Notes under the pieces: generated by a model
What the model was told of the DNA's origin: nothing
The model's database searches: none
The model's input: only the letters and a program-made list of their open reading frames with translations
In this document: positions 4,285 through 58,871 of the stretch, one piece after another
How the letters are laid out: the number at the start of each line of letters is the position of its first letter
How positions within the stretch are numbered: the stretch's first letter is position 1
Position numbers and translations under genes: made by a program
Source of the DNA: a virus
DNA: 64,000 nt
IMG/VR virus record: IMGVR_UViG_3300037587_000516
Span: 23,127-87,126 of that record
Strand: one strand, 5' to 3'

Positions 4285-4574
4285 GTTCATTAATGGCCGG
4301 AACACTTATGATAGCATTTGGCATAGTAATTATAGCCGCCGTTATAATACTGGATATAACAGGAAAGATAAATATAGGACCAAAATTAGCAGCGATTCCT
4401 CCGGAAGAAGTTCCGGAATGTTGGAGAGTTAAGAAGGTTGAGCATGTGTTTTATACTGACGACACAAATGAAATTTACATAATGGACGGAAGTTGGAGAG
4501 CAACTCAGCATTCGAGGTTAATTAGTGGCGAAGTTGAACAAATCGAAGGCTTAATATTTTTGGGCGAGCTGTGA
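4281..4574 (+). CDS. membrane-anchored hypothetical protein
   Basis: N-terminal TM helix; ends LIFLGEL; overlaps next start (GTGA). Confidence 0.65.
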   Translation: MSSLMAGTLMIAFGIVIIAAVIILDITGKINIGPKLAAIPPEEVPECWRVKKVEHVFYTDDTNEIYIMDGSWRATQHSRLISGEVEQIEGLIFLGEL

Positions 4575-4840
4575 AAACAATAATAAGAGATAATGTTTGG
4601 ACCAGACCAACTAAATTCACCGGAATAGTTGAATCTAAGAATGGAGATAAGGCTTGGTATTTGAATGGAGAATACCATAGAGTTGACGGACCTGCTCTTG
4701 AATGTGCTAATGGCACTGGGTATTGGTGGCTAAATGGCTCACATATATTAGAAACAGAGCATTCTAAAAGAACAGCTTATTTAAGAACTACTTTGGGTAA
4801 GTTGATATTTAATGAGCATTTTAAGTTGGAAGAGTCATGA
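4571..4840 (+). CDS. HRVDGPA-repeat family protein, copy 1/15 (MKTI-type, 1 unit)
   Basis: FTGIVE...WYLNGEYHRVDGPA...RTTLGKLIFNEHFKLEE. Confidence 0.9.
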   Translation: MKTIIRDNVWTRPTKFTGIVESKNGDKAWYLNGEYHRVDGPALECANGTGYWWLNGSHILETEHSKRTAYLRTTLGKLIFNEHFKLEES

Positions 4841-4980
4841 AAAAGTTAGTATTTGTATTCTTTGATAATTATATCGGCGACTTTGTTGAAATGACCCCAA
4901 CAGAGAAGAACTTGCATCAATTGTTTAGCACTAGAAACTCTAGTTTTTATTCGCATTTAACTTATTTGGGAGAGCTATGA
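4837..4980 (+). CDS. small protein (47 aa, not in ORF track)
   Basis: MKKLVFVFFDNYIGDFVE...HLTYLGEL; ATGA overlaps at both ends. Confidence 0.65.
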   Translation: MKKLVFVFFDNYIGDFVEMTPTEKNLHQLFSTRNSSFYSHLTYLGEL

Positions 4981-5246
4981 AAGTGTTTAAAGGGTGGTTT
5001 GGTGAAAAACCAGATAATTTCACAGGAATTGTCGAAGAGCCAGATGGAAGTAAGCGTTGGTGTTTAAATGGCCTACTTCATAAGGTTGACGGACATGCTG
5101 TTGAGTGGTACAACGGAAATAAGTTTTGGTGTTTGAATGGTAATTATATGACAGAAATAGAACACACTAAAAGAACAGCGTGGATAAAAACTACTTTGGG
5201 CAAATTGATATTTAATGAGCATTTTAAATTGGAGGACAAATGTTAG
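4977..5246 (+). CDS. HRVDGPA-repeat family protein, copy 2/15 (MKVFKGW-type, 1 unit)
   Basis: WCLNGLLHKVDGHA variant; KTTLGKLIFNEHFKLED. Confidence 0.9.
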   Translation: MKVFKGWFGEKPDNFTGIVEEPDGSKRWCLNGLLHKVDGHAVEWYNGNKFWCLNGNYMTEIEHTKRTAWIKTTLGKLIFNEHFKLEDKC

Positions 5247-5374
5247 GATTATTAATAGGCATTGTAATTGGGCTTGGCATAGCAGTTATTGTTGTCAAGT
5301 ACAAAAAAGAATTATTACCTATAAAAATTAAAAAGGACGAATCAAATGATAAAAGAAGGAATAGTTCTAAGTAA
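5240..5374 (+). CDS. small membrane protein (44 aa, not in ORF track)
   Basis: GGAGGA SD from upstream gene; MLGLLIGIVIGLGIAVIVVKYKK. Confidence 0.6.
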   Translation: MLGLLIGIVIGLGIAVIVVKYKKELLPIKIKKDESNDKRRNSSK

Positions 5375-6152
5375 GGGCGGAAAGTTATTTAAAACAGATT
5401 GGTTGTATAATGAAAAAACAGAAGAGGGCGAATTAGTTACTTTTGACGCAACTGATATAGCTCCCAGACTGTTATTTGAAACTGTCAGCTTTGACGATGA
5501 CGTAACTTTGCGGGACATATTTCGACTGCTGAATAGGCACATTGATATACTGGAGCCCCTTTTAGGAAACTGGTGTAGAGAGTTAACTGCCGAAGCGTTG
5601 TCTGGAATTGGACCGGCGTATTCTAACAAGTATGATGCCGAAGGAATTGAGTATTTAGAACTTACTCATTCGTTTGGGGAAAATACTTGGGACGGACACA
5701 CAGAAAGTTTTGGGAACATTTACCCTGATTTTGGCGGAAAGGGTTTCATGTTAAAAGAAGATGCTACTCATGGAGACCATACTGGACCAGAGGGCGTAAC
5801 TATTGGACATGAGGCGGGTAGTAGAATAAGTTGGGGACTGGAATTATCTTCTCCAAATACATTAATCAACATACCCATAAAACTAAACCCAAATACTGAA
5901 ATATACCATACGGATTTATCAGAAGAACGTACCATAAAGTCGGACAAGGTTGCTACGTTGAACAACTTGGGGTTTTCGTTAGGGCAGATTTTGTATGGGA
6001 TTGTGTGGGAGTTAACTTTTAATGGTCCGCCAGAAGTTAGAGACGACTTAAAAGCGGAGCTAACCGGCCAAGTAAAAGAAATTACTGGAGAGGTAGAAAA
6101 GCCAAAAGGGTCTCATTTATCAGTAGTTAGAAATGGTGAAGAAAAAACTTGA
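5346..6152 (+). CDS. hypothetical protein
   Basis: 268 aa ORF with AAGGA SD. Confidence 0.75.
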   Translation: MIKEGIVLSKGGKLFKTDWLYNEKTEEGELVTFDATDIAPRLLFETVSFDDDVTLRDIFRLLNRHIDILEPLLGNWCRELTAEALSGIGPAYSNKYDAEGIEYLELTHSFGENTWDGHTESFGNIYPDFGGKGFMLKEDATHGDHTGPEGVTIGHEAGSRISWGLELSSPNTLINIPIKLNPNTEIYHTDLSEERTIKSDKVATLNNLGFSLGQILYGIVWELTFNGPPEVRDDLKAELTGQVKEITGEVEKPKGSHLSVVRNGEEKT

Positions 6153-6177
6153 CATTGAACTTTGGTAGGAGTAGTAT
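6149..6177 (+). promoter_or_regulatory. sigma70-type promoter
   Basis: TTGACA-17-TAGTAT, ATG 6184 six nt downstream. Confidence 0.7.
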
Positions 6178-6183
6178 TAGGTT

Positions 6184-6519
6184 ATGAAGATATTTAAAGG
6201 GTGGTTTCGTGAAAGACCAAAAAACTTCACAGGAATAGTCGAAGATACAGGCGGCGATAAGTATTGGTATTTGAATGGTAAGTGGCATAGAGTTGACGGA
6301 CCTGCTTTTGAGTGTAAAGACGGCAGTAAGGTGTGGTATTTGAATGGGGAAAGGCATAGAGTTGACGGACCTGCTATTGAGTGGTCTGGTGGTGGTAAGT
6401 ATTGGTGTTTGAATGGTGAATATATGTCAGAAGAAGAGCATTATAAAAAGACAGCTTACCTTAGGACTACTTTGGGTAAGCTAATATTTAATGAGCATTT
6501 TAAATTGGAGGAAGGGTGA
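6184..6519 (+). CDS. HRVDGPA-repeat family protein, copy 3/15 (MKIFKGW-type, 2 units)
   Basis: Two 23-aa WYLNG..HRVDGPA units plus conserved tail. Confidence 0.9.
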   Translation: MKIFKGWFRERPKNFTGIVEDTGGDKYWYLNGKWHRVDGPAFECKDGSKVWYLNGERHRVDGPAIEWSGGGKYWCLNGEYMSEEEHYKKTAYLRTTLGKLIFNEHFKLEEG

Positions 6520-6743
6520 AAGAAAGAACTCAATTAGTATTAGCCGGTTATATTTTAGATGGTAAGTTTGATTTTTCTGTAGACCTTCCTTTTGTTAAAG
6601 TTGAACTAACTAGTTCGGAAATGAGAAAGTTAATTAACATGGAATATGGAATTAGATCTAAAAGATCTAGAATTATTAAAAAATACATGACTAGATTAAT
6701 TAATGTTTTCTGTATAGAAATTGTAAAGGATCTGATAAAATGA
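6516..6743 (+). CDS. hypothetical protein
   Basis: GTGA overlap with GGAGGA SD. Confidence 0.6.
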   Translation: MKERTQLVLAGYILDGKFDFSVDLPFVKVELTSSEMRKLINMEYGIRSKRSRIIKKYMTRLINVFCIEIVKDLIK

Positions 6744-7222
6744 AAAATCACATTATTACACTAATTGGCATACCAAATAGTGGGAAGACTACATTTGCTG
6801 ATAAACACTACCCGGACTATACTAGAATATCCTGGGATGATACGATGCTAGAGCTTTACCCAGCAGAAACGTATGGGGAGTCGTTTAAATTGGCAAAACC
6901 TTATTCTATGGACATTTTGGACATAACTCGCAAGAGGCTCTCAGAGGCCCTAGAGCGCAAGGAAAACATAGTCCTTGACCTGACCCATCTTAAGCGTAAA
7001 ATGCGCTCAGATCACCTGTCAGAGGTTCCTGAGAGCTATAAAAAGACCGCCGTGGTTTGTGTGGTTCCAGTTGGGGACATTTATGCTAGAAATGAGGCGC
7101 GGGTTAAGATTGGTAAGCACATAGATTTTAAGATACTAGAAGGTATGTTACGGCAGTATGAAGAGCCGACTAAAGAAGAGTTTGATGAGATAATCTTTAA
7201 TTGTAATTCAGGAGTAAACTAA
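6740..7222 (+). CDS. P-loop kinase (polynucleotide-kinase/AAA_33-like)
   Basis: LIGIPNSGKTT Walker A, ISWDD, NIVLDLTHL..R, RNEAR, EEPTKEEFD. Confidence 0.8.
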   Translation: MKNHIITLIGIPNSGKTTFADKHYPDYTRISWDDTMLELYPAETYGESFKLAKPYSMDILDITRKRLSEALERKENIVLDLTHLKRKMRSDHLSEVPESYKKTAVVCVVPVGDIYARNEARVKIGKHIDFKILEGMLRQYEEPTKEEFDEIIFNCNSGVN

Positions 7223-7584
7223 TGTTTGGGTTTAAAATTGTTCGGGAAGATGAGTATAATGAACTAGAAAAAGCAGCTACTCTTCACCAAAGAGTTTATA
7301 CGCTAGATAGGTGGTTTTCTGGATGGAAAGACCTAGATATTATATGGAACTACTTAACAGGAAAAGACAATACAAGCGACACATGGTCGTTGCGACAAAG
7401 TTATGCGGACAAAAGAAAAACAGGAATATATGGAACAACCCTTGAAGAGCAGAATTCGGAATTAATAAAAATACTAGAAATGGGATCAAATTTAGATAAC
7501 TATAATATTACTACGTTTGGTGAGCTTTGTGGCCCGGTTATGGAAATGAAAGAGGCACTACAAAAAGCAAAGGCAATGATATGA
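7222..7584 (+). CDS. hypothetical protein
   Basis: AGGAG SD, TAATG overlap. Confidence 0.7.
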   Translation: MFGFKIVREDEYNELEKAATLHQRVYTLDRWFSGWKDLDIIWNYLTGKDNTSDTWSLRQSYADKRKTGIYGTTLEEQNSELIKILEMGSNLDNYNITTFGELCGPVMEMKEALQKAKAMI

Positions 7585-7841
7585 AAAAGCCTAGAGAATT
7601 TACTATTATATATGATGGTATGAACGACCGACCAGTTGGTGCCGAGAATGGACGAAAACGGTCAACCGCAAGTGGCGGAGGTAGCATGGTCTGTATTCCG
7701 GTTATTGAAAAGTCTGCCTACAATAAGGTGATTAAAGCACTAAAATACTATAAAGAAATGGGAACTGCTGATGAGTTCTATTTTGGATGGGATGGCCATG
7801 AGGTTGCGGAAAAGGCGTTAAAAGAGTTGGGGGAAAAATAA
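7581..7841 (+). CDS. hypothetical protein
   Basis: ATGA overlap start at 7581 (MKKPREFTII). Confidence 0.65.
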   Translation: MKKPREFTIIYDGMNDRPVGAENGRKRSTASGGGSMVCIPVIEKSAYNKVIKALKYYKEMGTADEFYFGWDGHEVAEKALKELGEK

Positions 7842-7844
7842 AGC

Positions 7845-7873
7845 TTGACAAATCAGATAAAATGAGTTATATT
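7845..7873 (+). promoter_or_regulatory. sigma70-type promoter of recombination genes
   Basis: TTGACA-17-TATATT. Confidence 0.7.
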
Positions 7874-7892
7874 AAATAAAAGGAAACGTAAT

Positions 7893-9014
7893 ATGAGACT
7901 ATCACACAGCGCCATTCAAAAGTACTTAACGTGCGCCGCTCAATATGATGCCCACTATAATCTTAAGATCCGCTCTGAGAAGTTAGGAAGTCCTTTGTTG
8001 TTTGGAACTGCTGTGGATGAAGCCCAAGGCATTATGCTGCTTAGTAAGATGGATGATGCCGATTTAACGGACGAAGAACGGGCAACTATGGACAGAGATC
8101 CGTTTGACGTATTTGATTACCACTTAACAATGAAGGTAATTAAGCAAGATATTGGACCAGAGGATATAAGAACCTCTCCATATATTGAGTATTTTGGAAG
8201 TGATTTTGAGCCCGGGGTTCTTTTAGAAGAAGACTGGGTTAAATTAGAGCAGTTCATAAAAAATGCCGGGTACGAGGCAGATGATCCGGAAGAGTTGTTT
8301 ACAATACTAAAAGGTAAGATTAAAGAAGGAGACGCATCATTAACAGATCAGTGTTATTTTAACTATGCATCGTGGTTATCGTTGAGAAGAAAAGGGCACT
8401 TAATGCTTGAGTTGTACCGCGATAAGATCATGCCGTTGATTGACAGGGTTTATAGTATTCAAAGGAAGGTTGATTTGCCAAACGAAAATGGCGATGAGAT
8501 CATTGGGTATATTGATATTGAGGCATCTTTAGTTGGACATGAGGGTATTTTCACAATTGATAATAAAACTTCTGGGCCAAAGTATAAGCAGAGTGATATA
8601 AATGACAAGGGTCAATTAGTATTATACGATGAGTTTACCCAGAATGGTCAAGCTGCATATATAGTGCTACTGAAAAAGCCCAAGTTAATTAAACACAAAA
8701 CCTGCTTGTCTTGTGAGGGTACTACTACTAGATCAGTTAAAAAGTGCGCGGCAGAGGTAGAAGGAGTTCGTTGTAATGGCGAATTCTCCAATGAAATCGA
8801 GATAGAGCCCGAAATGCAGTATCAGATTTTAACTGGTGACATAGATGAAGAAAAAAAAGATTTGCTATTTGAACAGATTGATGATATACTAAGTAAAATT
8901 GAAGCGAAAGAGTTTCCTCAGAATAGAGATGCTTGTTTTCAGTTTGGAAAACCTTGCGCATATTTTAACTACTGTAGAAATGGTAGTATGGAAGGTTTGG
9001 GGAAAGTAAAATGA
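7893..9014 (+). CDS. PD-(D/E)XK Cas4/RecB-like exonuclease
   Basis: LSHSAIQKYLTC, GYIDI...IDNKTS, QLVLY, C-terminal C..FGKPC.YF.YC Fe-S-type cysteines. Confidence 0.82.
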   Translation: MRLSHSAIQKYLTCAAQYDAHYNLKIRSEKLGSPLLFGTAVDEAQGIMLLSKMDDADLTDEERATMDRDPFDVFDYHLTMKVIKQDIGPEDIRTSPYIEYFGSDFEPGVLLEEDWVKLEQFIKNAGYEADDPEELFTILKGKIKEGDASLTDQCYFNYASWLSLRRKGHLMLELYRDKIMPLIDRVYSIQRKVDLPNENGDEIIGYIDIEASLVGHEGIFTIDNKTSGPKYKQSDINDKGQLVLYDEFTQNGQAAYIVLLKKPKLIKHKTCLSCEGTTTRSVKKCAAEVEGVRCNGEFSNEIEIEPEMQYQILTGDIDEEKKDLLFEQIDDILSKIEAKEFPQNRDACFQFGKPCAYFNYCRNGSMEGLGKVK

Positions 9015-9355
9015 AGGTGTTTAAAGGGTGGTGTAAGGATAGACCACATAAATTCACGGGAATTGTTGAAACTCCAGGTGGCACTAAGTATTGGTATTTG
9101 AATGGTGAATTTCATAGAGTTGACGGACCTGCTATTGAATATTCTAAGGGTGGTAAGTCTTGGTATTTGAATGGAGAAAGACATAGAGTTGACGGGCCTG
9201 CTATTGATTGGACAGATGGAAGTAAGTCTTGGTTTTTGAATGGTGAGTATATGACAGAGGAAGAGCATGCTAAAAGAACAGCTTATCTTAGGACTACTCT
9301 TGGTAAGTTGATATTTAATGAGCATTTTAAACTGGAGGAAAACAGTGTCAACTAA
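9011..9355 (+). CDS. HRVDGPA-repeat family protein, copy 4/15 (MKVFKGW-type, 2 units)
   Basis: Two HRVDGPA units plus conserved tail; sits inside the recombination operon. Confidence 0.9.
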   Translation: MKVFKGWCKDRPHKFTGIVETPGGTKYWYLNGEFHRVDGPAIEYSKGGKSWYLNGERHRVDGPAIDWTDGSKSWFLNGEYMTEEEHAKRTAYLRTTLGKLIFNEHFKLEENSVN

Positions 9356-9644
9356 AGCAGAAGTAGAAAAAGAGAATAAAACATTGCGGGCTGAAATTCG
9401 TGAATTGCGTAAAGCCTCAAAAGAATCTAGCGCCTCATTAGAGGGGATGCCCTTTACTGGGATCGGAGTTGGATTAGATAGTGATGGAAAATTTAACCTT
9501 GTTCATATCAAGTTTGATCTTGAAAGTAAGTCCGCAGCAGTTGCAGAAACTTTGCGGGTAATGGATTACGCTCCGGAAACGGCAGGGTATGCAAAAACCG
9601 CATTAGTTGATGAAATAATTAGACTCAGTAAGGAGAGAAAGTAA
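9345..9644 (+). CDS. hypothetical coiled-coil protein
   Basis: GTG 9345 behind GGAGGA, in frame with track ORF 9318. Confidence 0.65.
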   Translation: MSTKAEVEKENKTLRAEIRELRKASKESSASLEGMPFTGIGVGLDSDGKFNLVHIKFDLESKSAAVAETLRVMDYAPETAGYAKTALVDEIIRLSKERK

Positions 9645-10381
9645 TGAGTAAAAAACAAACACCGGAAGAAATGATGGGCGAATTAACGCATGAGCAATTA
9701 GTAGAGCAGTTGAGCAACTCTTTGCAGGTTAACGAAAACATGAAAGCAAACCAACAGGGCTTGATTGACGAAAGTAAACAGCTTCGTAACCAGATAGATT
9801 CACTAAGTGCAGGAAAGTCTATTTACGGAAAGTTGTTGGCTGTTAAAAGAGACTTGGGGTATGTTGCGAAAGACCAAAAGAATTCGGGTCAGGGCTGGAT
9901 GTTTCGTGGAATAGATCAGTTTCTAAATGCAATAAAGCCTCTGTTAGATACTCATGGAGTTGGTATTTCAACTAAAGTGGTACAGAATGCAGAAGAATAT
10001 AAGCTAAACGAAAAGACTGGAAAGTATGCTAAGAATACTAGGCTTATTATGGAGTATATATTCTTTGCGGAAGATGGCTCAACAGTTAGCTGCCAAATGC
10101 CAGCAGAAGGTGTGGACCCCGGAGATAAGGGCACTAATAAGGCGCTATCAGCAGCATTGAAATACTGCCTAATCCAAACGTTCGCTGTTCCAACTAAAGA
10201 TACTGCGGAAGCTGATAGTGAGAATCCTACAAATGATAGCGGAAAGGTTTCGGGAAAAGCTACTGCCACAAAAACAGTTACTCCAACAGGTGAAAAAGCA
10301 GCGGCTGCCCCAGCAAAGAAGTCATTTAGAAGAAAATCTGTAGCTAAAACTCCGGAGGCATCTAGTGACATCGACCTCTAA
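9644..10381 (+). CDS. ERF-family ssDNA annealing protein
   Basis: KDQKN..QGWMFRGID, EGVDPGDKGTNKALSAALKYCL.QTFAVPT.D. Confidence 0.85.
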   Translation: MSKKQTPEEMMGELTHEQLVEQLSNSLQVNENMKANQQGLIDESKQLRNQIDSLSAGKSIYGKLLAVKRDLGYVAKDQKNSGQGWMFRGIDQFLNAIKPLLDTHGVGISTKVVQNAEEYKLNEKTGKYAKNTRLIMEYIFFAEDGSTVSCQMPAEGVDPGDKGTNKALSAALKYCLIQTFAVPTKDTAEADSENPTNDSGKVSGKATATKTVTPTGEKAAAAPAKKSFRRKSVAKTPEASSDIDL

Positions 10382-10742
10382 AGAAGTAGTGGACCAAGAT
10401 TTGGCCAAAGAAGAAAAGGCAGAAGAAGCTCCGGAAATCTCAACGTTGGACCAATTAAGCGGAGCATTTAACGCTAATCTTAATGAGAGCCTTAATTTAA
10501 TCGGCTCTATGTCCAAGAATGGATTGCAGAGAGTTATAAAAGTATTGCTGGCATACCCCTTGCTTCATGAAGACTTGGGGGTCACCATTGATAAAGAGCA
10601 AGAAGTTAGATTAGCTCAGCTAGGTGTTGACATTCAGCATATTAAGTTTAGTATGACAATGGAAAGCATGGGCATTGATACTAAAGAGTTAGCAAAAGAA
10701 GTAGATGAAAGTAAAGAAGTAACTAAACAGGAAAAGGAATAA
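10365..10742 (+). CDS. hypothetical protein
   Basis: GGAGG SD, operon position. Confidence 0.65.
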   Translation: MTSTSKEVVDQDLAKEEKAEEAPEISTLDQLSGAFNANLNESLNLIGSMSKNGLQRVIKVLLAYPLLHEDLGVTIDKEQEVRLAQLGVDIQHIKFSMTMESMGIDTKELAKEVDESKEVTKQEKE

Positions 10743-10744
10743 AC

Positions 10745-11080
10745 ATGGCAAAGAAGTATTCAAAAGTTGGAGCAATTAAGCTATCCAAAGGCGGCGAAGG
10801 AAAAGTATCCAAGCTCTATATTAACCTAAACGCAGACAAAGACAAAGAAGGAAAAGTTAATATAGCTAGTATCAAGGCTCTTCACGCTGCACTTGGTTCG
10901 TTGATTGACAACCCAAATGACGGAGACAATCAGTATGGGGTCAGTCTTATGATTGAAAAGCCTCAGGATTCACTGCGCCGCCTTAACGAGTTAGGGTATA
11001 TTGATGATGATAAACTAGAAGCTCGTATAGAAGGTGTTCCAGATTGGTTAAAGTATGAAATTACATTAGTTCACGAATAA
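10745..11080 (+). CDS. hypothetical protein (possibly ssDNA-binding)
   Basis: AAGGA SD; last gene of exonuclease-ERF operon; function inferred from position only. Confidence 0.6.
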   Translation: MAKKYSKVGAIKLSKGGEGKVSKLYINLNADKDKEGKVNIASIKALHAALGSLIDNPNDGDNQYGVSLMIEKPQDSLRRLNELGYIDDDKLEARIEGVPDWLKYEITLVHE

Positions 11081-11162
11081 AATTAAAGTGGTTGGATAAT
11101 CCACTAGTATCAACAGCATGTACTCTCAGCTAAAAAATATCCGCAAAATTCCTCCCTTTTGG

Positions 11163-11190
11163 GGTCCGGCAGAAATGTCGGGCCTTTTTT
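11163..11190 (+). terminator. intrinsic terminator
   Basis: GGTCCGGCA-GAAA-TGTCGGGCC followed by T6. Confidence 0.85.
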
Positions 11191-11203
11191 ATTGAGAAAA
11201 GGG

Positions 11204-11232: not shown

Positions 11233-11249
11233 TAAGAAACGGAGGTATC

Positions 11250-15403: not shown

Positions 15404-15828
15404 TGCGGCGGCTCTTGTTTCGGTGGGGATGATGCTGAACGAGGTAATAACGTACTCAACTACACCAACCATAACAGAGCAGATACTGGTCCCATACAAA
15501 CAGGCGTTTATGGACATGGTAAAGCACACTGGTATGCACCTTGATCTTAACACAATCAAGTTTGAATCACTACCCAACAATACTATAGGAATCTGTAACC
15601 CATTGATGTTGGAGATTAAAATAGACCCCGTATACTGGAGCACAGCGGACGAGAAAGAGAGAATTGCCGTAACTTTTCATGAGTTCAACCACTGTATTTG
15701 TTTGGATCTTGTTCATGCTGAAGGTGAGTTTGAGGACTAGTATTATGAACACTGTATTGCCAGATAGTGCATGTTTGGGTGAGCATTGGGCAGAGTATAT
15801 GGCGGACTTGATAAAAAGGTGTGAATAA
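15378..15828 (+). pseudogene. Secreted metzincin-type metallopeptidase split by a frameshift near 15730-15740
   Basis: Signal/TM N-terminus and HEFNHCICLDLVH zinc motif; frame stops at 15740 but the +1 frame continues TSIMNTVLPDSACLGEHWAEYMADLIKRCE (Met-turn) to TAA at 15826-15828. Confidence 0.6.
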
Positions 15829-16094
15829 TGAAAACTATTAAAGTGAACAACTATTTTAATGTCCCAATTAAATTTACTGGTATTGCTGATTTTGACAGCG
15901 GCACTTTAGTTTGGTTTTTGGATGGAAGGAGACATAGAGTTGATGGACCTGCTGTTGAATATGCTGATGGCATTAAGGTTTGGTGGTTGAATGGTGAGTT
16001 TGTGTCAGAAGAAGAACATGCTAAAAGAACTGCTTATCTTAGGACTACTCTTGGTAAGTTGATATTCAATGAGCATTTTAAATTGGAGGAATAG
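15828..16094 (+). CDS. HRVDGPA-repeat family protein, copy 5/15 (MKTIK-type, 1 unit)
   Basis: Conserved unit and tail; TAG abuts polA ATG. Confidence 0.9.
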   Translation: MKTIKVNNYFNVPIKFTGIADFDSGTLVWFLDGRRHRVDGPAVEYADGIKVWWLNGEFVSEEEHAKRTAYLRTTLGKLIFNEHFKLEE

Positions 16095-18675: not shown

Positions 18676-19014
18676 ATGAAAACAATAAAAGTGGACGACA
18701 ATTGGCATAAGCCAGATAAATTCACAGGAATTGCTGAATATCCTAATGGCGATGAGTATTGGTATTTGAATGGTAAATATCATAGAGTCGACGGACCTGC
18801 TATTGAATATGCTGGTGGTGGTAAGTATTGGTATTTGAATGGTAAAATGCATAGAGTTGGCGGACCTGCTGAGGAATGGTCAGATGGTAGTGAGTTTTGG
18901 TTTTTGAATGGTGAGATGCTAACAGAAGAAGAGCATGATAAAAGAACAGCCTATTTAAGAACTACATTAGGCAAACTAATATTCAATGAGCATTTTAAGT
19001 TGGAGGACTCGTGA
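18676..19014 (+). CDS. HRVDGPA-repeat family protein, copy 6/15 (MKTIK-type, 2 units)
   Basis: HRVDGPA and HRVGGPA units, conserved tail; GGGAG SD. Confidence 0.9.
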   Translation: MKTIKVDDNWHKPDKFTGIAEYPNGDEYWYLNGKYHRVDGPAIEYAGGGKYWYLNGKMHRVGGPAEEWSDGSEFWFLNGEMLTEEEHDKRTAYLRTTLGKLIFNEHFKLEDS

Positions 19015-19280
19015 GAGTATTTAAAGGGTGGTTTGGTGACGAACCAGATAATTTCACCGGAATTGTTGAGTCTGAGAATGGGGACAGGGCTTGGTGTTTG
19101 AATGGTGAATGTCATAGAGTTGACGGACCTGCTATTGAGTGGGGTGATAGTGGAAGTTGGTCGTGGTATTTGAATGGTGTGATGATAACAGAGGAAGAGC
19201 ACACTAAAAAGACAGCGGGGTATAGAACTACCTTGGGAAAATTGATTTTTAATGAGCATTTTAAATTGGAGGAGAAATGA
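19011..19280 (+). CDS. HRVDGPA-repeat family protein, copy 7/15 (MRVFKGW-type, 1 unit)
   Basis: Conserved unit and tail. Confidence 0.9.
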   Translation: MRVFKGWFGDEPDNFTGIVESENGDRAWCLNGECHRVDGPAIEWGDSGSWSWYLNGVMITEEEHTKKTAGYRTTLGKLIFNEHFKLEEK

Positions 19281-19630
19281 AGGTATTTAAAGGGTGGTTT
19301 GGAGATCAACCAGATAACTTTACTGGGATTGTTGAAACTCCGCGTGGTAATAAGTATTGGTATTTAAATGGTGAGAGACATAGAGTGGGTGGACCTGCTA
19401 GTGAATATCCTGGTGGCAGTAAGCGGTGGTATTTGAATGGACTAAGACATAGAGTTGACGGACCTGCTAGTGAATGGGCTGATGGCACTGAGATTTGGTA
19501 TTTGAATGATGTAGAAATGACAGAAGATGAGCACACTAAAAGGACCGCTTGCTATAGAACTACCTTGGGTAGATTAATACTAAAAAAAGAAGGGCATTTT
19601 AAACTACAAACTGAGGAGGAATCAGTATGA
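19277..19630 (+). CDS. HRVDGPA-repeat family protein, copy 8/15 (MKVFKGW-type, 2 units)
   Basis: Variant tail RTTLGRLILKKEGHFKL. Confidence 0.9.
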   Translation: MKVFKGWFGDQPDNFTGIVETPRGNKYWYLNGERHRVGGPASEYPGGSKRWYLNGLRHRVDGPASEWADGTEIWYLNDVEMTEDEHTKRTACYRTTLGRLILKKEGHFKLQTEEESV

Positions 19631-22845: not shown

Positions 22846-23063
22846 AAAAATCTGATATGATTAAAGAGCTAGCAGGTTGGTTTGAAGTCGAATTTAACGA
22901 AAACCCACAGGATTCTATAGTATCAGCTAAGCGAATGTTAGAGTTTGTAGAGCATCTTGGAATGGTATCAGAAGAGTGGCTCGAAGAAAGCATTAAGAAA
23001 AATCTTGAGAACTTTGGTGTAGAAATTCATAACGAAATATATGGGGAGCCGGAGGAAAAATGA
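22842..23063 (+). CDS. hypothetical protein
   Basis: GGAG SD, ATGA overlaps. Confidence 0.65.
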   Translation: MKKSDMIKELAGWFEVEFNENPQDSIVSAKRMLEFVEHLGMVSEEWLEESIKKNLENFGVEIHNEIYGEPEEK

Positions 23064-23344
23064 AAACAATAAAGCTAGAGTCAGTTTGGAGTGGGCCAGA
23101 TAATTACACCGGAATTGTTGAAAATCCATATGGTGATAAGGTTTGGTTTTTGAATGGTCTAAGACATAGAGTTGATGGACCTGCTTGTGTGTGGGATGAT
23201 GGAGATGAGTGGTGGTATTTGACTGATGAGTATATGACAGAGGAAGAGCACAGTAAAAGAACTGCTTACTTAAGAACCACACTAGGCAGACTTATACTAA
23301 AAGAACACTTTACATTAGGAGATGAAAATGCAAGTAAAGATTAA
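23060..23344 (+). CDS. HRVDGPA-repeat family protein, copy 9/15 (MKTIK-type, 1 unit)
   Basis: Variant tail RTTLGRLILKEHFTL. Confidence 0.9.
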   Translation: MKTIKLESVWSGPDNYTGIVENPYGDKVWFLNGLRHRVDGPACVWDDGDEWWYLTDEYMTEEEHSKRTAYLRTTLGRLILKEHFTLGDENASKD

Positions 23345-23750
23345 GCGTCTGCACCCAGACGCGAAAATACCCCAAAAAGCCCACCAAGGGGATGCTGGAT
23401 TTGATCTAGTAGCTGTCACAAAAGAACTAACCCCACAAGGTTATATTGAAATGAAAACCGGCCTTGGCTTCGAGATCCCTCCGGGCCACATGGGGTTGCT
23501 GTTTCCAAGGTCTAGTATATCAAATACTAAAATGACCTTGACCAATTCTGTCGGTGTACTTGATGAGAATTTTAGAGGAGATGTTAGCTTTAGATTTAAG
23601 CCCGCAACTTCTGGAAAAGGTGGGTATGAAATAGGAGACAAAATAGGCCAACTAGTAATCATGCCTTATCCTAGTATTGAGTTAGTTGAAGTTGATGAGC
23701 TAGATGAAACTGATCGTGGAACTGGTTCCTATGGGTCGTCTGGAAAATGA
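23328..23750 (+). CDS. dut: trimeric dUTPase
   Basis: AGFDL, PRSS, NSVGVLDENFRG, GDKIGQL, RGTGSYGSSG. Confidence 0.95.
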   Translation: MQVKIKRLHPDAKIPQKAHQGDAGFDLVAVTKELTPQGYIEMKTGLGFEIPPGHMGLLFPRSSISNTKMTLTNSVGVLDENFRGDVSFRFKPATSGKGGYEIGDKIGQLVIMPYPSIELVEVDELDETDRGTGSYGSSGK

Positions 23751-24016
23751 AAACAATTAAAGTAAAGTATTGGCTTGATAGACCTTGTAATTTCACGGGG
23801 ATTGTTGAATGTTATAATGGAGATAATATTTGGCTTTTGAATGGTAAAAGGCACAGAGTAGACGGACCTGCTAGTGAATGTGCCGGTGGTGATAAGTATT
23901 GGTTTTTGAATGGTGTTCGTATGACAGAAGAAGAGCATTATAAAAGGACAGCGTGGACTAGGACTACATTAGGTAAATTGATATTCAATGAGCATTTCAC
24001 ATTAGACGGAGAGTAG
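23747..24016 (+). CDS. HRVDGPA-repeat family protein, copy 10/15 (MKTIK-type, 1 unit)
   Basis: TAWTRTTLGKLIFNEHFTL tail. Confidence 0.9.
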   Translation: MKTIKVKYWLDRPCNFTGIVECYNGDNIWLLNGKRHRVDGPASECAGGDKYWFLNGVRMTEEEHYKRTAWTRTTLGKLIFNEHFTLDGE

Positions 24017-24220: not shown

Positions 24221-24468
24221 AGGGAAAATCCAAAGTTCCAGAAAAAGCAACCACAGACAAGCTACGTTACTATAAAGGCGTTGTCAAAGAACTTACAAAA
24301 GAATTGCGGAATCTAAAGGATAGGGTCGGTGATTTGGAAACACAGATGTCTAAGATATACACAAACCCGAAAAAGTATACTAAAACTAAAGCTAGTATAG
24401 ATGAAAGAGAGCGGGAATTGCTTTTGAAAAAATATAACCCGGATTATAAAAAGGATGGAGAGAAATGA
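24217..24468 (+). CDS. basic coiled-coil hypothetical protein
   Basis: Packed ORF with overlaps on both sides. Confidence 0.6.
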   Translation: MKGKSKVPEKATTDKLRYYKGVVKELTKELRNLKDRVGDLETQMSKIYTNPKKYTKTKASIDERERELLLKKYNPDYKKDGEK

Positions 24469-24731
24469 AGGTGTTTAAAGGGTGGACTTGGAATATGCCA
24501 AATAATTTCACTGGCATTGTTGAAAACAATAGTGGTAATAAGCATTGGTATTTGAATGGTGAGAAGCATAGAGTTGACGGACCTGCTATTGAATATGTTG
24601 GCGGAGTTAAGGCCTGGTTTTTGAATGGTGAGCGTGTGACAGAGGAAGAGCATTATAAAAAGACAGCTTATCTTAGGACTACTCTTGGTAAGTTGATATT
24701 TAATGAGCATTTTAAACTGGAGGAAGCGTGA
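24465..24731 (+). CDS. HRVDGPA-repeat family protein, copy 11/15 (MKVFKGW-type, 1 unit)
   Basis: Conserved unit and tail. Confidence 0.9.
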   Translation: MKVFKGWTWNMPNNFTGIVENNSGNKHWYLNGEKHRVDGPAIEYVGGVKAWFLNGERVTEEEHYKKTAYLRTTLGKLIFNEHFKLEEA

Positions 24732-25598: not shown

Positions 25599-26420
25599 AT
25601 GAAAATACTATTATTTTTACTAGCGTTTATTCCGGGAATGGCGTTAGCCACCGGACCAGAACTAATTACACTAACTGCTGAAAATACAATATCGCTTAGG
25701 GACTCAGTAAATTGGTCTAGTATATCACAACTACAATACCAACTATTACAAAAAGCGGCTAGGCTAGACGATGACGAGCCAATTTATTTAGTATTAGACA
25801 CACCAGGCGGATCTGTTTCTGCCGGTGAAATGTTTATTGAAACACTAAAAGGAGTAAAACAACCAGTCCACACTATAGTTATATTTGCAGCATCAATGGG
25901 ATTTCAGATTACCCAATCAACTGACTTCCGTCACATTCTATCAAGCGGCACATTAATGTCACATAGAGCAACCGTTGGTATTAACGGACAAATAGATGGT
26001 GAATTAGAATCTAGGTTGTCCTATTATAAAAAAGCAGTTGGTGAAATGGAAGTTAGATCGGCTAAGCGTGTTGGGATGAGCATTGTTGATTACAAAGCCA
26101 AGATTTTAAATGAATGGTGGGAAGTAGGAAAAAATGCTGTTACAAACAAGATGGCAGACAGCGTAGTTGCTGTTAAGTGCAGTGATGATTTGGTTAAGCG
26201 GGTGGTTTCTAGGAGAATTAAGTCTCTCTTTGGCAGTCGTCTTGTTATGTTTTCTGCTTGCCCATTAATCACAACTCCAATTGCTAAAGCAAAACGAAGT
26301 CACAATAACAAACTCAATAATACCAACAATGCCCAAATGGACCTATACATGGATCGGCTGTTTTTTAATAAGCGCAGCTTTTTGAATAATTACATTAATA
26401 CCGGAATGTTTAATCAGTAA
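25599..26420 (+). CDS. ClpP/crotonase-fold serine protease with predicted signal peptide
   Basis: MKILLFLLAFIPGMALA signal; IYLVLDTPGGSV, FAASMG (Ser), LMSH (His). Confidence 0.8.
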   Translation: MKILLFLLAFIPGMALATGPELITLTAENTISLRDSVNWSSISQLQYQLLQKAARLDDDEPIYLVLDTPGGSVSAGEMFIETLKGVKQPVHTIVIFAASMGFQITQSTDFRHILSSGTLMSHRATVGINGQIDGELESRLSYYKKAVGEMEVRSAKRVGMSIVDYKAKILNEWWEVGKNAVTNKMADSVVAVKCSDDLVKRVVSRRIKSLFGSRLVMFSACPLITTPIAKAKRSHNNKLNNTNNAQMDLYMDRLFFNKRSFLNNYINTGMFNQ

Positions 26421-26680
26421 TGGAAGTGTTTAAAGGGTGGCTTGTAGATAGACCAGATAAATTCACTGGGATTGTCGAAAGACCAGATGGTGATAAGTTT
26501 TGGTGTTTGAATGGTGGGTGGCATAGAGTGGATGGACCTGCTATTGAATGGTTCGATGGTGCTACGTATTGGTTTTTGAATGGTGTGTATATGACAGAAG
26601 AAGAGCATTATAAAAGAACAGCTTATCTTAGAACTACATTAGGTAAGCTAATATTTAAGGAACAATCGAAATTAATATGA
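26420..26680 (+). CDS. HRVDGPA-repeat family protein, copy 12/15 (MEVFKGW-type, 1 unit)
   Basis: Shortened tail RTTLGKLIFKEQSKLI. Confidence 0.9.
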   Translation: MEVFKGWLVDRPDKFTGIVERPDGDKFWCLNGGWHRVDGPAIEWFDGATYWFLNGVYMTEEEHYKRTAYLRTTLGKLIFKEQSKLI

Positions 26681-56577: not shown

Positions 56578-56862
56578 ATGAAAATATATAAAGGCGATCT
56601 TTTTGATAGACCAGACAACTTCACCGGAATTGTGATAACTTCACACAATAATGAGATTTGGTTTTTAAATGGTGAAGCACATAGAGTTGATGGACCTGCT
56701 TTTGTGGGACCACATGGAACGTATTGGTGTTTGTTTGGCTACACTGTAACGGAAGAAGAGCACAACAGAAGAACAGCGTGGACTAGAACAACGATAGGAA
56801 AACTGATCCTGAGCCAGCCCCATTTTGGGCTAGATTCTGAGGATGAGGGTGTAGCAAAATAA
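56578..56862 (+). CDS. HRVDGPA-repeat family protein, copy 13/15 (most divergent)
   Basis: MKIYKGD..RPDNFTGIV, HRVDGPA, RTTIGKLILSQPHF. Confidence 0.88.
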   Translation: MKIYKGDLFDRPDNFTGIVITSHNNEIWFLNGEAHRVDGPAFVGPHGTYWCLFGYTVTEEEHNRRTAWTRTTIGKLILSQPHFGLDSEDEGVAK

Positions 56863-56987: not shown

Positions 56988-57380
56988 ATGAGTGTGTTTT
57001 CGTGGATAGGAGATCTGTTCGGCCCAATTTCAGAACTGGTAGACGAAGTTTATTTTTCCGGGGAAGAAGAAGCCCAAGCCAAAGCTAAGATGGCCGAGAT
57101 AAAGAGCAAGATGGCCCAGATCGAAGCCCAGGTCGCAACAAAGACGCTAGAATTTCAATCTGAGCTGGTTAAGGCAAATACTAAAATAGCCACAGCAGAG
57201 CAGGAGCATGGGAATTGGCTGAGCAAATCGTGGAGGCCAGTGTGCTCTTTGGGCAGCTTTACAATGCTGATGTTGATGGGAATCGGGTATATTCCCTTTA
57301 ATGAGTACTTGTCAGTAATGTTTGGATCGTTTCTTGGAATTCATGGCGGCGGTCGATCATACGAAAAGACGAAGAAATAG
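56988..57380 (+). CDS. 3TM-holin-like protein
   Basis: LVDE...S.EE, AE...NWLSKSWRP, TM helices, GGRSYEK. Confidence 0.75.
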   Translation: MSVFSWIGDLFGPISELVDEVYFSGEEEAQAKAKMAEIKSKMAQIEAQVATKTLEFQSELVKANTKIATAEQEHGNWLSKSWRPVCSLGSFTMLMLMGIGYIPFNEYLSVMFGSFLGIHGGGRSYEKTKK

Positions 57381-57404
57381 ACTAATATATAGAAAGGAAC
57401 TAGA

Positions 57405-57602
57405 ATGAGCAAAATAAAGAAAATACAAGAACTTAGGGTATTAAGTGCCCCGTGGGAAAACAACAAGATACTTTTGGACAAGCTTAACGAGGTCATTGAC
57501 GCCCTAAACTCCATATCTGAGCCGGAAGTAAAGAAAGCGCCGGTAGCAACAAAGCCGAAAAAGCCAAAGAAAGAGAAGCCCGTAGTCTCTAAAGAGGAGT
57601 AA
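57405..57602 (+). CDS. hypothetical protein
   Basis: AAGGA SD; DKLNEVIDALN motif. Confidence 0.65.
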   Translation: MSKIKKIQELRVLSAPWENNKILLDKLNEVIDALNSISEPEVKKAPVATKPKKPKKEKPVVSKEE

Positions 57603-57725
57603 GTGTATGAACCTATCCGGCCTGTTAGCCCAAGATCCAAGCTGGGCAAGCCCAGAGATGGTTATTCTGTTTGCTGTATTAATAGTTATGTGCGTAGTTA
57701 CCTCAGGAAAAGGGAGGAGAAAAGG

Positions 57726-57995
57726 ATGAAAACAATAAAGCTAGGTGACTATTGGGATAGGCCGGATAATTTTACAGGGATTGTTGAAGACCGATACGAC
57801 AATAAGTATTGGTGTTTGAATGGCAAAAGACATAGAGTTGACGGACCTGCAATTGAATGGTCAGATGGAGATAAGGAATGGTTTATGAATGGTGAGCAGA
57901 TAACAGAGGAAGATCATGCTAAAAGAACAGCGTGGACCAAAACTACGCTAGGTAAGTTGATATTCAATGAGCATTTTAAATTGGAGAGCACATGA
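57726..57995 (+). CDS. HRVDGPA-repeat family protein, copy 14/15 (MKTIK-type, 1 unit)
   Basis: ATG 57726 with GGAGGAG SD, in frame with upstream GTG 57603. Confidence 0.88.
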   Translation: MKTIKLGDYWDRPDNFTGIVEDRYDNKYWCLNGKRHRVDGPAIEWSDGDKEWFMNGEQITEEDHAKRTAWTKTTLGKLIFNEHFKLEST

Positions 57996-58258
57996 AAAAA
58001 GCATTAATTATCGCAGGGTTAGTCATTGGGCTAGCATTTGGTGTAGTTGGGGTATCAAAGGCCATCGGTGTAGTATCCCAGGTTACTACAGTAATAACAC
58101 AAGTTGCGGTAATCACCGAAGCAATGGACAGGCAGAAGGCCAAGCTCGCTAAGTTTGAGAAAACGGTAGGCGACCTGACAAAGAAGATAGATAAGCTGAA
58201 GGAAATCAAAATCCCCAGCCCACCAAAAGCACCAAAGCTTCCGAGTATCAGCATATGA
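57992..58258 (+). CDS. membrane-anchored coiled-coil protein
   Basis: N-terminal TM, Pro-rich tail; near lysis-type genes. Confidence 0.65.
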   Translation: MKKALIIAGLVIGLAFGVVGVSKAIGVVSQVTTVITQVAVITEAMDRQKAKLAKFEKTVGDLTKKIDKLKEIKIPSPPKAPKLPSISI

Positions 58259-58602
58259 AGTACGTCATATTTGCATTTGTACTAATATATAGTATAGAAG
58301 TGTTTCCTGACCGGACCCCGATTGACCAGATACTGAGAACCATCGAAACGTCAACCGGGTGCAAAATGATAGTCACATCAGGATTTCGCACAAAGGCTCA
58401 TAATACTAGAGTAGGCGGAGCTAAGAACAGTTTTCATCTATATGGAAGAGCATTGGATATTGTGCCTAAGGACAAAAAGTGTATTAGTATTAAGAAGTTG
58501 GGCAAGATTGCTTGTAAGATTACCTCTGTAATAACATACAAGTACCATGCCCATATCGACAACAGAGCCAAGCCGCTCTGTATCTTGGGCAGGTATAAAT
58601 GA
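58255..58602 (+). CDS. Peptidase M15 (D-Ala-D-Ala carboxypeptidase-like), candidate endolysin
   Basis: VTSGFRT..HN..VGGA.NSFHL.GRALD...HAHID; hydrophobic N-terminus. Confidence 0.85.
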   Translation: MKYVIFAFVLIYSIEVFPDRTPIDQILRTIETSTGCKMIVTSGFRTKAHNTRVGGAKNSFHLYGRALDIVPKDKKCISIKKLGKIACKITSVITYKYHAHIDNRAKPLCILGRYK

Positions 58603-58871
58603 AAACAATAAAACTAAGCACAACCGAAAAAACTCCGGATAATTTCACAGGAATTATAGAAGAGCCAGATGGTAATAAGTATTGGTTTTTAAATGGTAAG
58701 GAACATAGGGTTGACGGACCTGCTGTTGAATTTGCTGATGGTACTATTAAGAAGTGGTATTTGAATGGTATGAAAGTGACAGAAAAAGAGCATATTAAAA
58801 GAACAGCTTATTTAAGAACTACTTTGGGCAAATTGATATTCAATGAGCATTTTAAATTGGAGGACACATGA
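58599..58871 (+). CDS. HRVDGPA-repeat family protein, copy 15/15 (MKTIK-type, 1 unit)
   Basis: Conserved unit and tail. Confidence 0.9.
   Translation: MKTIKLSTTEKTPDNFTGIIEEPDGNKYWFLNGKEHRVDGPAVEFADGTIKKWYLNGMKVTEKEHIKRTAYLRTTLGKLIFNEHFKLEDT

Follow-up and report, generated by a model that had tools for sequence, protein, structure and literature searches.

In polymorphic toxin systems, YwqK/MORN_2 proteins serve as antitoxins (immunity proteins) and presumably act by binding a protein. Poxvirus ankyrin/PRANC proteins join a variable repeat to a constant adaptor tail. MORN repeats, as described by Sajko et al. (2020, PMC7725318), are 23-residue units of a beta-hairpin plus loop that stack into an elongated sheet; the same account presents them as protein-protein interaction modules dimerising through their C-termini in TbMORN1 and apicomplexan MORN1, and gives their signature as a GxG start, G10, YEGEW at positions 13-17 and LxY at 5-7. 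In large eukaryotic viruses, Shukla et al. (2018, PMC5753266) describe multigene repeat-protein families of the ankyrin, MORN, F-box and BTB types.

We analysed a family of small repeat proteins in a 64-kb window (the whole stretch of DNA under study, 64,000 nucleotides), which is the terminal 64 kb of a complete phage genome of 87,126 bp from marine sediment. A sequence-only reading of this window had listed fifteen paralogues on the + strand, and all 15 ORFs were confirmed at the starts that it gave. Fifteen is the count for the window; in the whole genome there are 26. An HMM built from the 15 window copies and searched against the six-frame translation of the complete genome recovered 26 family ORFs, all at E <= 1.6e-25, of which 11 lie in the first 23 kb, outside the window. 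The next-best match had E = 0.97, placing the family far beyond chance. All 26 copies are open frames on the + strand, dispersed among core genes over ~59 kb of the + strand block, and together they make up 8.9% of the genome (7,776 nt). The window copies, each of 86-117 aa, contribute 4,362 nt (6.8% of the window), close to the earlier estimate of about 4.4 kb and 7%. The same whole-genome search found no copy inside the - strand virion block (27.9-55.6 kb), as had been claimed; the 'early/middle' assignment made alongside is suggested by position, and three copies (56578, 57726 and 58599) adjoin a Peptidase_M15_3 gene.

The alignment displays the layout first read from the window: an N-cap ending FTGI, which occurs in two types among the 26 copies, the 23-aa unit W.LNG..HRVDGPA.E...G.K., a half unit and a tail. 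Eleven window genes carry one full unit and four carry two, exactly as counted before. The one-unit copies at 4571..4840 and 4977..5246 have the N-caps MKTI and MKVFKGW, respectively, and full tails; the tail is also full in the two-unit copies at 6184..6519 and 9011..9355. Another one-unit copy (15828..16094) stands immediately upstream of polA (start 16095). Three further copies are chained through GTGA/ATGA overlaps, namely 18676..19014 (two units), 19011..19280 (one unit) and 19277..19630 (two units, with the variant tail end GRLILKKEGHFKLQ...). The one-unit copy at 23060..23344 also has a variant tail end and overlaps the start of a gene identified by eye as a putative dUTPase (23322..23750); one-unit copies follow at 23747..24016, 24465..24731, which was the copy used for folding, and 26420..26680, where the tail end is altered to FKEQSKLI. 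The remaining one-unit copies lie at 56578..56862, with the most divergent tail in the window, at 57726..57995, whose ATG falls within a longer GTG-started frame from 57603, and at 58599..58871, after the Peptidase_M15_3 gene (58255..58602).

The AF2 model of copy 24465 (pLDDT 89.2, pTM 0.74) places strands at residues 2-5, 17-20, 26-30, 33-34, 42-43, 49-53 and 56-58, and helices at 60-66, 68-71 and 73-82; the repeat is thereby predicted to be a 23-residue MORN-like beta-hairpin. Its fixed frame consists of W, L, an N-G turn, H-R, D-G-P-A, E, G and K. The positions between these residues had been said to vary freely, which is true of the hypervariable offsets -1, +6, +17, +20 and +22 but not of +1 and +16, which are restricted to Y/F/W/C/H. 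Aromatic residues fill 34% of the 368 variable cells vs 7.9% of positions in the proteome, an excess that is possibly inflated, since the aromatic or Cys offsets +1 and +16 may be structural, as is the aromatic ladder in MORN. Variable and fixed residues alternate along the predicted strands, in both the model and the alignment, and it is from this alternation that we infer that the variable residues would share one face of the sheet.

Selection was assessed with the Nei-Gojobori method by comparing 23 copies two at a time (253 pairs), with variable-site classes set beforehand from the arrays of other phages. Frame sites gave a dN of 0.043. At variable sites dN was 0.91 vs a repeat-region dS of 0.59 (ratio 1.56), with pN exceeding pS in 83% of the 253 pairs. 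Synonymous diversity in the repeat region is itself lowered, to 0.42 of expectation, and its dS is much below the tail dS of 1.33; with tail dS as the reference, the ratio at variable sites becomes 0.68. The dN/dS check proposed with the first reading therefore gives values on either side of 1 and does not prove positive or diversifying selection; a looser constraint on exposed residues would also account for the variable-site ratio. The copies are nonetheless maintained proteins: strong purifying selection on frame and tail, with synonymous sites near saturation, marks them as old and not as junk. Diversity-generating retroelement targets were ruled out, since the reverse transcriptase profile PF00078 found nothing in the complete genome of 87,126 bp but did give matches in control genomes; the diversification is thus not driven by such an element.

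The same proteins recur widely in other phages. At least 565 of at least 594 candidate stretches in IMG/VR were confirmed as family, and 42 of the 78 loci fetched have two or more family ORFs (up to 22 in some). In each IMG/VR array inspected, the N-cap and the C-tail are constant and peculiar to that array, and the present genome likewise combines several paralogues with constant, array-specific caps (26 copies, one tail). As in other phage HRxDGPA arrays, W, LNG, HR, DGPA, E, G and K are fixed and offsets -1, +6, +16, +17, +20 and +22 are hypervariable. The 33 units here and 611 units from the 78 IMG/VR loci have the same entropy profile; in this comparison H, R and parts of D-G-P-A were set by the search pattern, which left E+15, G+19, K+21 and every variable offset free. 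Viral members make up 93-100% of the Atlas clusters of a homologue, and a BFVD fold search returned 19 matches at E <= 1e-3, all viral. The HRxDGPA-repeat family is huge, almost purely viral, unstudied and partly captured by DUF6745.

We tentatively favour, at somewhat below an even chance, an explanation in which the 26 copies form a set of intracellular binders with a shared tail module, produced by lineage-specific expansion of this very large family of viral 23-residue hairpin-repeat proteins. Each protein would be a short single beta-sheet made of an N-cap strand, one or two hairpin units, a half unit and a C-terminal helix, one side carrying the fixed frame and the alternating positions carrying aromatic-rich, fast-changing residues. 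As products of non-virion + strand genes, the proteins would act inside the host, each presenting a different face to targets that are probably host proteins, for example those involved in defence or takeover. They may evolve by duplicating, by gaining or losing units and by recombining with one another. The binder library put forward in the sequence-only reading is thus partly supported, by the maintenance of the proteins, the aromatic-rich variable sites, their dN above the local dS, the strand alternation and the conservation of the tail.

The constant tail proved less uniform than first described: it is present in 24 of the 26 copies, and the other two have unrelated C-termini. In copy 24465 it comprises residues 59-88 (24639..24728, + strand), with a C-cap helix TEEEH.K. 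followed by TAYLRTTLGKLIFNEHFKLEE, which contains TTLGKLIFNE. Tail residues 59-79 have a dN of 0.16 and a dN/dS of 0.12 over the 253 pairs, and codon heterozygosity at residues 67-79 comes close to what neutrality predicts, indicating that the tail is kept by protein-level selection and not by recent copying. The tail is also rare. A tail profile searched against 1.84 billion proteins returned eight matches, all with the same N-cap and repeat layout, and outside this genome the tail is represented by four singletons; it occurred neither on any other fold nor in longer proteins among those 1.84 billion, and it was not found in IMG/VR. At E <= 10, Pfam models matched neither of two 38-aa tail pieces, and the tail profile had no match below E 0.28 among PDB sequences, on which grounds an F-box/PRANC-type adaptor was rejected.

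Under the explanation that we favour, the stretch of 19 residues that follows the C-cap helix (TA.LRTTLGKLIFNEHFKLE) would be a selected protein module, most likely a shared interaction peptide serving one common partner or pairing between copies. It is less likely, though a serious alternative, that each protein works on its own as a binder or inhibitor, with no common partner, the whole tail being a structural C-cap packed against the fixed sheet face. The first tail helix, TEEEH., indeed belongs to a C-cap (residues 60-71) common to the wider family, recurring as TEEE[H/F/W] after the half unit in unrelated arrays and metagenome homologues, and part of the tail is therefore structural. Residues 61-70 of the model have a mean pLDDT of 92, H63 is invariant in 26/26 copies, and the confinement of the tail to this fold (8/8 matches) is expected of an integral structural element too. 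Other results speak against this alternative. Consecutive residues 71-85 have pN values of 0.05-0.28 irrespective of helical phase, and 72-85 are thus conserved on all helical faces, whereas exposed residues of the family otherwise vary strongly. Over the last 18 residues pLDDT declines to 77 and then 53, the last 6-8 being of low confidence; two natural copies have exchanged the tail for other sequence with the repeat part intact; and in mutual-information tests, which had low power, tail residues 69/70 did not covary with the sheet.

A more specific role for the tail is suggested by its core decapeptide, TTLGKLIFNE. It occurs unaltered in 13 of the 24 copies that have the tail, and many bacteria have the identical sequence as a conserved motif of RNA polymerase, in domain 3 of the beta' subunit. 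On the strength of this sequence match, the tail could be a molecular mimic of beta' that routes all two dozen binding faces to whatever this beta' segment contacts in the transcription machinery of the host, or that competes with beta' for that contact. We regard this as very doubtful; if true, the family would amount to an adaptor library that the phage directs at host RNA polymerase.

The gene junctions bear on whether the proteins matter at all. The start lies at the stop of the upstream ORF in 21 of 26 copies, and the next start falls within +/-12 nt of the copy in 20 of 26. A Shine-Dalgarno-like GGAG(G) for the next gene is located in the last tail codons, as at 16085..16090 (+), where GGAGGA in the final tail codons (L-E-E) lies 4 nt before the polA ATG; GAG is used in 12/14 cases vs a genome share of 0.42 (p = 0.001), and the constancy of the tail end may thus be partly a nucleotide-level effect. 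Furthermore, the identities of N-cap, repeats and tail are almost uncorrelated between copies (Spearman 0.08-0.39), and exact tracts join distant copies, one of 69 bp shared by copy 6184 and genome copy 19132 and one of 63 bp shared by copies 9011 and 24465. These features could be produced by selfish or near-neutral cassettes that spread by recombination between conserved ends and are tolerated through their own start overlap and downstream ribosome-binding site, the protein doing little. The scatter of copies between core genes would also suit such cassettes, as would the lack of family ORFs in three loci of phages with 45-48% identical PolA and the absence of the nearest named phage from the tblastn matches. 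We nevertheless consider this explanation improbable. A frame dN of 0.04 and the low tail dN/dS, with near-saturated synonymous sites, argue against it, as do 26/26 open frames; nucleotide identity in the repeats is at most 82% for any pair of copies, which leaves no recent duplicate among them; profile searches found no nuclease or recombinase domain in the 86-117-aa copies; and tight start/stop overlaps are the rule for other genes of this genome, hence not specific to a family cassette. That the copies are translated spacers which couple translation of their neighbours, or RNA-level signals, with irrelevant peptides, would fit the overlaps, the GGAGG in tail codons and the reduced repeat-region synonymous diversity, but is highly unlikely given strong amino-acid conservation at tail residues 67-79, where synonymous sites change freely, a confident predicted fold and the occurrence of this protein family on hundreds of further viral contigs.

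The copies examined were not assigned to known anti-phage defence systems or named phage protein families. PADLOC gave 0 matches for five copies, PHROGs 0 families for seven of eight (the eighth had one 9-residue match, E 0.0064), and NCBIfam chance-level rows only. In the uncharacterised Pfam family DUF6745 (PF20530), positions ~61-107 of the 206-position profile match the phage repeats, with the remainder uncovered. The best window copy scores 15.6 bits, below the 27-bit gathering cut-off, and one sister-array protein (L059) barely exceeds it at 27.2 bits; precomputed DUF6745 annotation is present on 7 of 78 metagenome homologues and on 10-38% of members of related Atlas clusters. The literature searched does not mention DUF6745 or PF20530.

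The description of the repeats as 'MORN-variant/YwqK-like' does not survive at the level of Pfam models, as neither MORN (PF02493) nor MORN_2 (PF07661) matched at E <= 1 in any of the ten copies scanned, and the best MORN_2 result in a sister array was E 0.15 (12.8 vs 29.6 bits at the cut-off). Fold comparison yielded a BFVD match to a giant-virus 'MORN repeat-containing protein' (E 2.4e-4) and, with Foldseek against the PDB, weak matches to TbMORN1 and junctophilin-2 (E 3-5). The phage proteins share with YwqK/MORN_2 immunity proteins a small hairpin-repeat build and putative protein binding, and differ in having neither a MORN_2 match in the window copies nor a paired toxin gene. They resemble the MORN proteins described in PMC7725318 in their 23-residue period and aromatics at fixed offsets, and may also do so in a predicted hairpin-plus-loop unit that would stack into one elongated sheet. 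They do not, however, follow the signature as given there, of which only the first G and the 5-7 aromatic/aliphatic pair are matchable; the frame is instead W.LNG..HR.DGPA.E...G.K with a two-residue N-G turn, and the proteins comprise just one or two units with caps, followed by a helical tail.

As in the eukaryotic-virus repeat families portrayed in PMC5753266, one genome has many paralogues, which have expanded in a lineage-specific way and presumably act on the host; unlike those families, the setting is an 87-kb phage, and the proteins are below 120 aa, without F-box/PRANC/BTB and with no ubiquitin system to recruit. The parallel with ankyrin/F-box adaptors drawn earlier is accordingly reduced to analogy. 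The likeness of 'variable repeat plus constant adaptor tail' to poxvirus proteins is likewise an analogy, not a tested homology. Close counterparts are the IMG/VR arrays L018, L036, L059, L009, L015 and L034, which have in common with this family the HRxDGPA unit, the hypervariable offsets and the TEEE[F/H] C-cap, and several HRxDGPA arrays also have an FTGI-type N-cap. Most of those arrays are in tandem, each gene having 2-8 units, whereas in this phage the genes are dispersed, hold one or two units and carry a tail of their own.

The sequence-only reading had counted 15 paralogues of a HRVDGPA-repeat protein in the window. All 15 ORFs were recovered on the + strand, each beginning where it had been placed, and when translated and aligned they share one layout, in which an N-cap ending P..FTGI is followed by the unit W.LNG..HRVDGPA.E...G.K., a half unit and a tail. 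The unit counts were confirmed as well, with one full unit in 11 of the 15 and two in the other four (copies 6184, 9011, 18676 and 19277, named by their start positions), as was the estimated extent of about 4.4 kb or 7% of the window, the ORFs summing to 4,362 nt (6.8%). The paralogues are therefore real, but 15 proved too low a total. The window covers the last 64 kb of a single record of 87,126 bp, classed in IMG/VR as complete with direct terminal repeats. An HMM made from the 15 copies and run on a six-frame translation of this whole genome returned 26 ORFs at E ≤ 1.6e-25, with the next match at E = 0.97, so that 11 further copies lie in the 23 kb preceding the window. The 26 copies all lie on the + strand and together sum to 7,776 nt, or 8.9% of the genome. 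One unit is present in 19 copies and two in seven (33 full units and 26 half units in all), and the N-cap is of two types, MKVFKGW and MKTIK[VL]. The tail, which had been called constant, is present in 24 of the 26 copies, but the other two carry unrelated C-termini. In these two tail-less copies, which lie before the window at genome positions 4468-4932 and 6417-6812, N-cap and repeats are retained; the divergent ends, of ~85 and ~40 residues, are possibly frameshifts or fusions.

The + strand block encodes a PD-(D/E)XK nuclease, an ERF recombinase, a DnaB-like helicase, a RlaP-like nucleotidyltransferase and a Peptidase_M15_3 protein. Also on the + strand are a BCS1-like AAA ATPase (2840-4153; Pfam BCS1_N 4.5e-17, AAA 4.7e-18), an unusual gene at this phage size, a family A DNA polymerase (polA, start 16095) and a Clp-protease-like protein (25599-26420; Pfam CLP_protease 1.8e-14). 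The last of these has a hydrophobic N-terminal segment and stands outside the head module, with copy 26420 directly after it. Terminase, portal, major head protein and other virion proteins occupy a - strand block at 27.9-55.6 kb, which is free of copies, as had been claimed. By eye, four + strand ORFs (1469-1990, 11668-12120, 21702-22319 and 24728-25171) have the look of HNH-type homing endonucleases; for the fourth, which directly follows copy 24465, the scan gave a weak DUF5816 row only. Among named phages, Flavobacterium phage vB_FspM_immuto has the closest PolA (47.7% identity); it is absent from the family's tblastn matches. Nothing in the phage collection matched a 6.5-kb megablast query, and none of the three loci found for phages with 45-48% PolA identity has family ORFs. 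Relatives at this level of identity are too distant for the cassette insertions to be dated. The stretch is present in one DNA run, a marine sediment metagenome that may be its source, and no RNA run carrying it was listed.

An AF2 model of copy 24465, made with an alignment of 41 rows (pLDDT 89.2, pTM 0.74), has strands at residues 2-5, 17-20, 26-30, 49-53 and 56-58, short bridges at 33-34 and 42-43, and helices at 60-66, 68-71 and 73-82; block pLDDT is 92 at residues 61-70, 77 at 71-80 and 53 at 81-88. Fixed residues (W, L; H, R; E) and variable residues (unit offsets -1, +1; +6; +14, +16) alternate within the strands, an arrangement that would put the two sets on opposite sheet faces. We infer from the model that the variable residues share one face, opposite the fixed frame. 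W, Y and F together fill 34% of variable cells against 7.9% in the phage's long ORFs, and Cys 3.8% against 1.0%, in agreement with the claim that variation often runs to W, Y, C or F. The accompanying statement that these positions vary freely was too broad: offsets +1 and +16 accept only aromatic residues, Cys or His, possibly for structural reasons.

With the same model, Foldseek matched nothing in the PDB at E ≤ 1e-3; TbMORN1 and junctophilin-2 appear among the PDB rows at E 3-5. BFVD gave 19 matches at E ≤ 1e-3, mostly small uncharacterised proteins of uncultured phages; the others include a Harvfovirus 'MORN repeat-containing protein' and Agrobacterium phage Atu_ph07 proteins, and Celeribacter phage P12053L falls just above the line at E 1.6e-3. 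The Pfam MORN models do not match the 10 family copies scanned, and the repeats differ from MORN in lacking its structure-based signature (GxG, G10, YEGEW, LxY) as set out in PMC7725318. By the tests run on sequence and model, the repeat appears MORN-like in period and architecture but not MORN.

To assess selection, Nei-Gojobori counts were made column by column for pairs of copies and then pooled over 253 pairs from 23 copies, with the site classes taken from other phages' arrays so that circularity is avoided. The per-site comparison that the sequence-only reading had proposed finds frame and tail under purifying selection: frame residues have pN near 0 with pS of 0.2-1.4, dN at fixed frame sites is 0.043, and tail residues 59-79 have a dN of 0.16 against a dS of 1.33 (ratio 0.12). 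The variable sites give a less settled answer. Their dN of 0.91 exceeds the repeat region's dS of 0.59 (ratio 1.56), with pN greater than pS in 83% of the 253 pairs, but the ratio is 0.68 when the tail's dS is used. Because dS differs in this way between adjacent regions, diversifying selection at the variable sites is suggested, not proven. The difference is about two-fold across all copies, between residues 21-58 and the adjoining 59-79 (copy 24465 numbering). In the repeats, codon heterozygosity reaches 0.42 of what neutrality predicts (examples are Leu TTG in 21-23 of 25 and Pro CCT in 25 of 25); at tail residues 67-79 it is near expectation. The lower repeat dS could come from gene conversion restricted to the repeats or from nucleotide-level constraint on the frame codons.

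No pair of copies exceeds 82% nucleotide identity in the repeats, and the copies are therefore old; every one is intact, and we regard it as firm that protein-level selection maintains both frame and tail. It is also evident that the copies recombine with each other, since N-cap, repeat and tail identities are nearly uncorrelated (Spearman 0.08-0.39) and exact tracts of 69 bp and 63 bp are common to copies many kilobases apart. Selfish cassettes that spread within the genome, their protein being of little account, would explain this mosaicism and the dispersal of the copies, but not the strength of the selection on the protein. Targeted mutagenesis of the DGR type is ruled out, as the complete genome has no reverse transcriptase.

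The first helix of the tail, TEEEH.K., is a C-cap common to many arrays and written [LM][TS]EEE[FHW], and the 19 residues after it are specific to this phage. A profile made from 15 tails and searched against 1.84 billion representative proteins found eight at E ≤ 1e-3, four from this genome and four outside singletons on short Logan or ENA contigs. The N-cap and repeat layout is common to all eight, and no longer protein with the tail was found. The tail is absent from all 78 IMG/VR loci fetched, and none of the 58 matches from a pattern scan of IMG/VR was confirmed as a relative. Tail residues 71-85 are conserved on every face. Its rarity, its tie to one fold, the strong selection on it and its conservation all round make the tail easier to explain as a bound peptide than as a helix packed on one side, though it may also be a structural cap. 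In a test of low power, no covariation between tail and sheet was seen beyond linkage within N-cap types. The tail may dock on a partner, as the sequence-only reading had supposed, mediate pairing between copies, or serve as a fold cap only.

A more specific role for a bound peptide is raised by the best PDB sequence match of the tail profile, residues 578-588 of the RNA polymerase beta' chain 8i23_D, where ETTLGRLIFNE stands against RTTLGKLIFNE in the tail at E = 0.28, not significant by HMMER. The back-translated pattern TT[L/F]G.[L/F]IFNE, scanned over bacterial genomes, matches at least 120 stretches, and every one listed has the motif in a single common context, with TTLGRLIFNE in 87 and the exact TTLGKLIFNE in 26 of the 120 matches listed. 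The motif lies inside RNA_pol_Rpb1_3 (beta' domain 3) in all three loci checked, and 13 of the 24 copies with a tail carry the exact decapeptide. About 2e-3 exact 10-mer matches (K/R allowed) would be expected by chance at any of the tail's 27 windows, as estimated from background residue frequencies and a PDB-sized set of ~4.7e7 residues at an assumed average chain length, a figure that compositional and helical bias may lift tenfold. We take mimicry of the beta' sequence by the tail as a lead, though an improbable one. A transmembrane or strongly amphipathic membrane helix is rejected on a hydrophobic moment of ≤0.39 and a mean hydrophobicity of ≤0.26 in 11-residue windows. A resemblance to helix-turn-helix proteins is unsupported: two 38-aa tail pieces have no Pfam match at E ≤ 10, and the PDB sequence search returned no HTH chain.

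The copies are closely joined to their neighbours. In 21 of 26 the start codon lies at the upstream ORF's stop, mostly as ATGA or GTGA, and 20 have a further start codon no more than 12 nt from their own stop. The final tail codons, K-L-E-E, read TTGGAGGA and so place a Shine-Dalgarno-like GGAGG a few bases ahead of the next start, as at 16085-16090 ahead of polA at 16095. At that Glu 12 of 14 copies have GAG, a codon with a genome share of 0.42 (p = 0.001); the choice of GAG or GAA at the K-L-E codon has no significant association with a coupled downstream gene (Fisher p = 0.14). Other genes of this genome also overlap tightly as a rule, and the overlaps are thus not specific to the cassette. 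Two + strand ORFs, at 4837 (47 aa) and 5240 (44 aa), adjoin the stops of copies 4571 and 4977, through an ATGA-type overlap or a start 6 nt before; their early residues are hydrophobic and they may be small membrane peptides. Opposite every family gene runs an antisense open frame of 60-118 aa that contains a repeated motif of its own (- strand; 6127-6357, 8969-9325, 18616-18852, 18951-19259 and 24444-24710), most likely a by-product of repeat codon make-up and no gene.

Beyond this genome, a search of 5.8 billion proteins gave whole-query matches to this contig only, apart from an identical protein on one contig of 10,253 bp; the remaining matches have N-cap and repeats in common, and their tails differ. 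At least 565 of at least 594 candidate stretches in IMG/VR encode a relative. Among the 78 loci fetched, 42 have two or more family ORFs and 21 four or more. The largest arrays hold 22 in 20 kb (loci L018 and L029), 12 (L015) and 11 (L036). In the six arrays inspected, the paralogues of one phage have a constant N-cap and C-tail, different between phages, with one to eight units per gene. The unit entropy profile is the same in the 33 units here and in 611 units of other loci, and Atlas clusters around one homologue are 93-100% viral, unnamed or DUF6745. On the 204-kb contig of L018, 22 tandem family genes in 11 kb (6378-17166) all end in a constant module of ~50 residues, ...GKYDLYWLKFLTE.GIEEFPIIPGME..., far larger than the tail in the window. 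Two other loci (L036:115-7031 and L034:498-13181, with 11 and eight paralogues) have the constant tail LT[LM]DEIA..[FL]G[VI].VSKLKIKK, which looks helix-turn-helix-like, its sole support being Rv2175c_wHTH at E 0.17.

Our best reading is that the copies are a diversified set of putative small intracellular binders, which combine a MORN-like hairpin scaffold with a common tail kept by selection. The family itself is widespread. Distinctive here are the density of copies in a complete mid-sized genome, the minimal one-unit architecture, the dispersed insertion between core genes and the rare, strongly conserved tail. Arrays of the scaffold occur in hundreds of other viral contigs, yet we found no paper on it in the literature searched. 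If the proteins are binders, they would represent a natural and very small (<90 aa) recognition scaffold whose variable positions have already been mapped by evolution, of use in finding host targets, including the defence systems of uncultured bacteria, and perhaps as a scaffold for engineering. The tail peptide, strongly selected and common to 24 proteins, is usable as bait. Single small phage proteins that disarm or redirect host proteins are known; large diversified families on one binding scaffold are, to our knowledge, known mainly from giant viruses and poxviruses. In the complete, mid-sized phage genome described here, 26 maintained copies of a single minimal scaffold take up 8.9% of the DNA.
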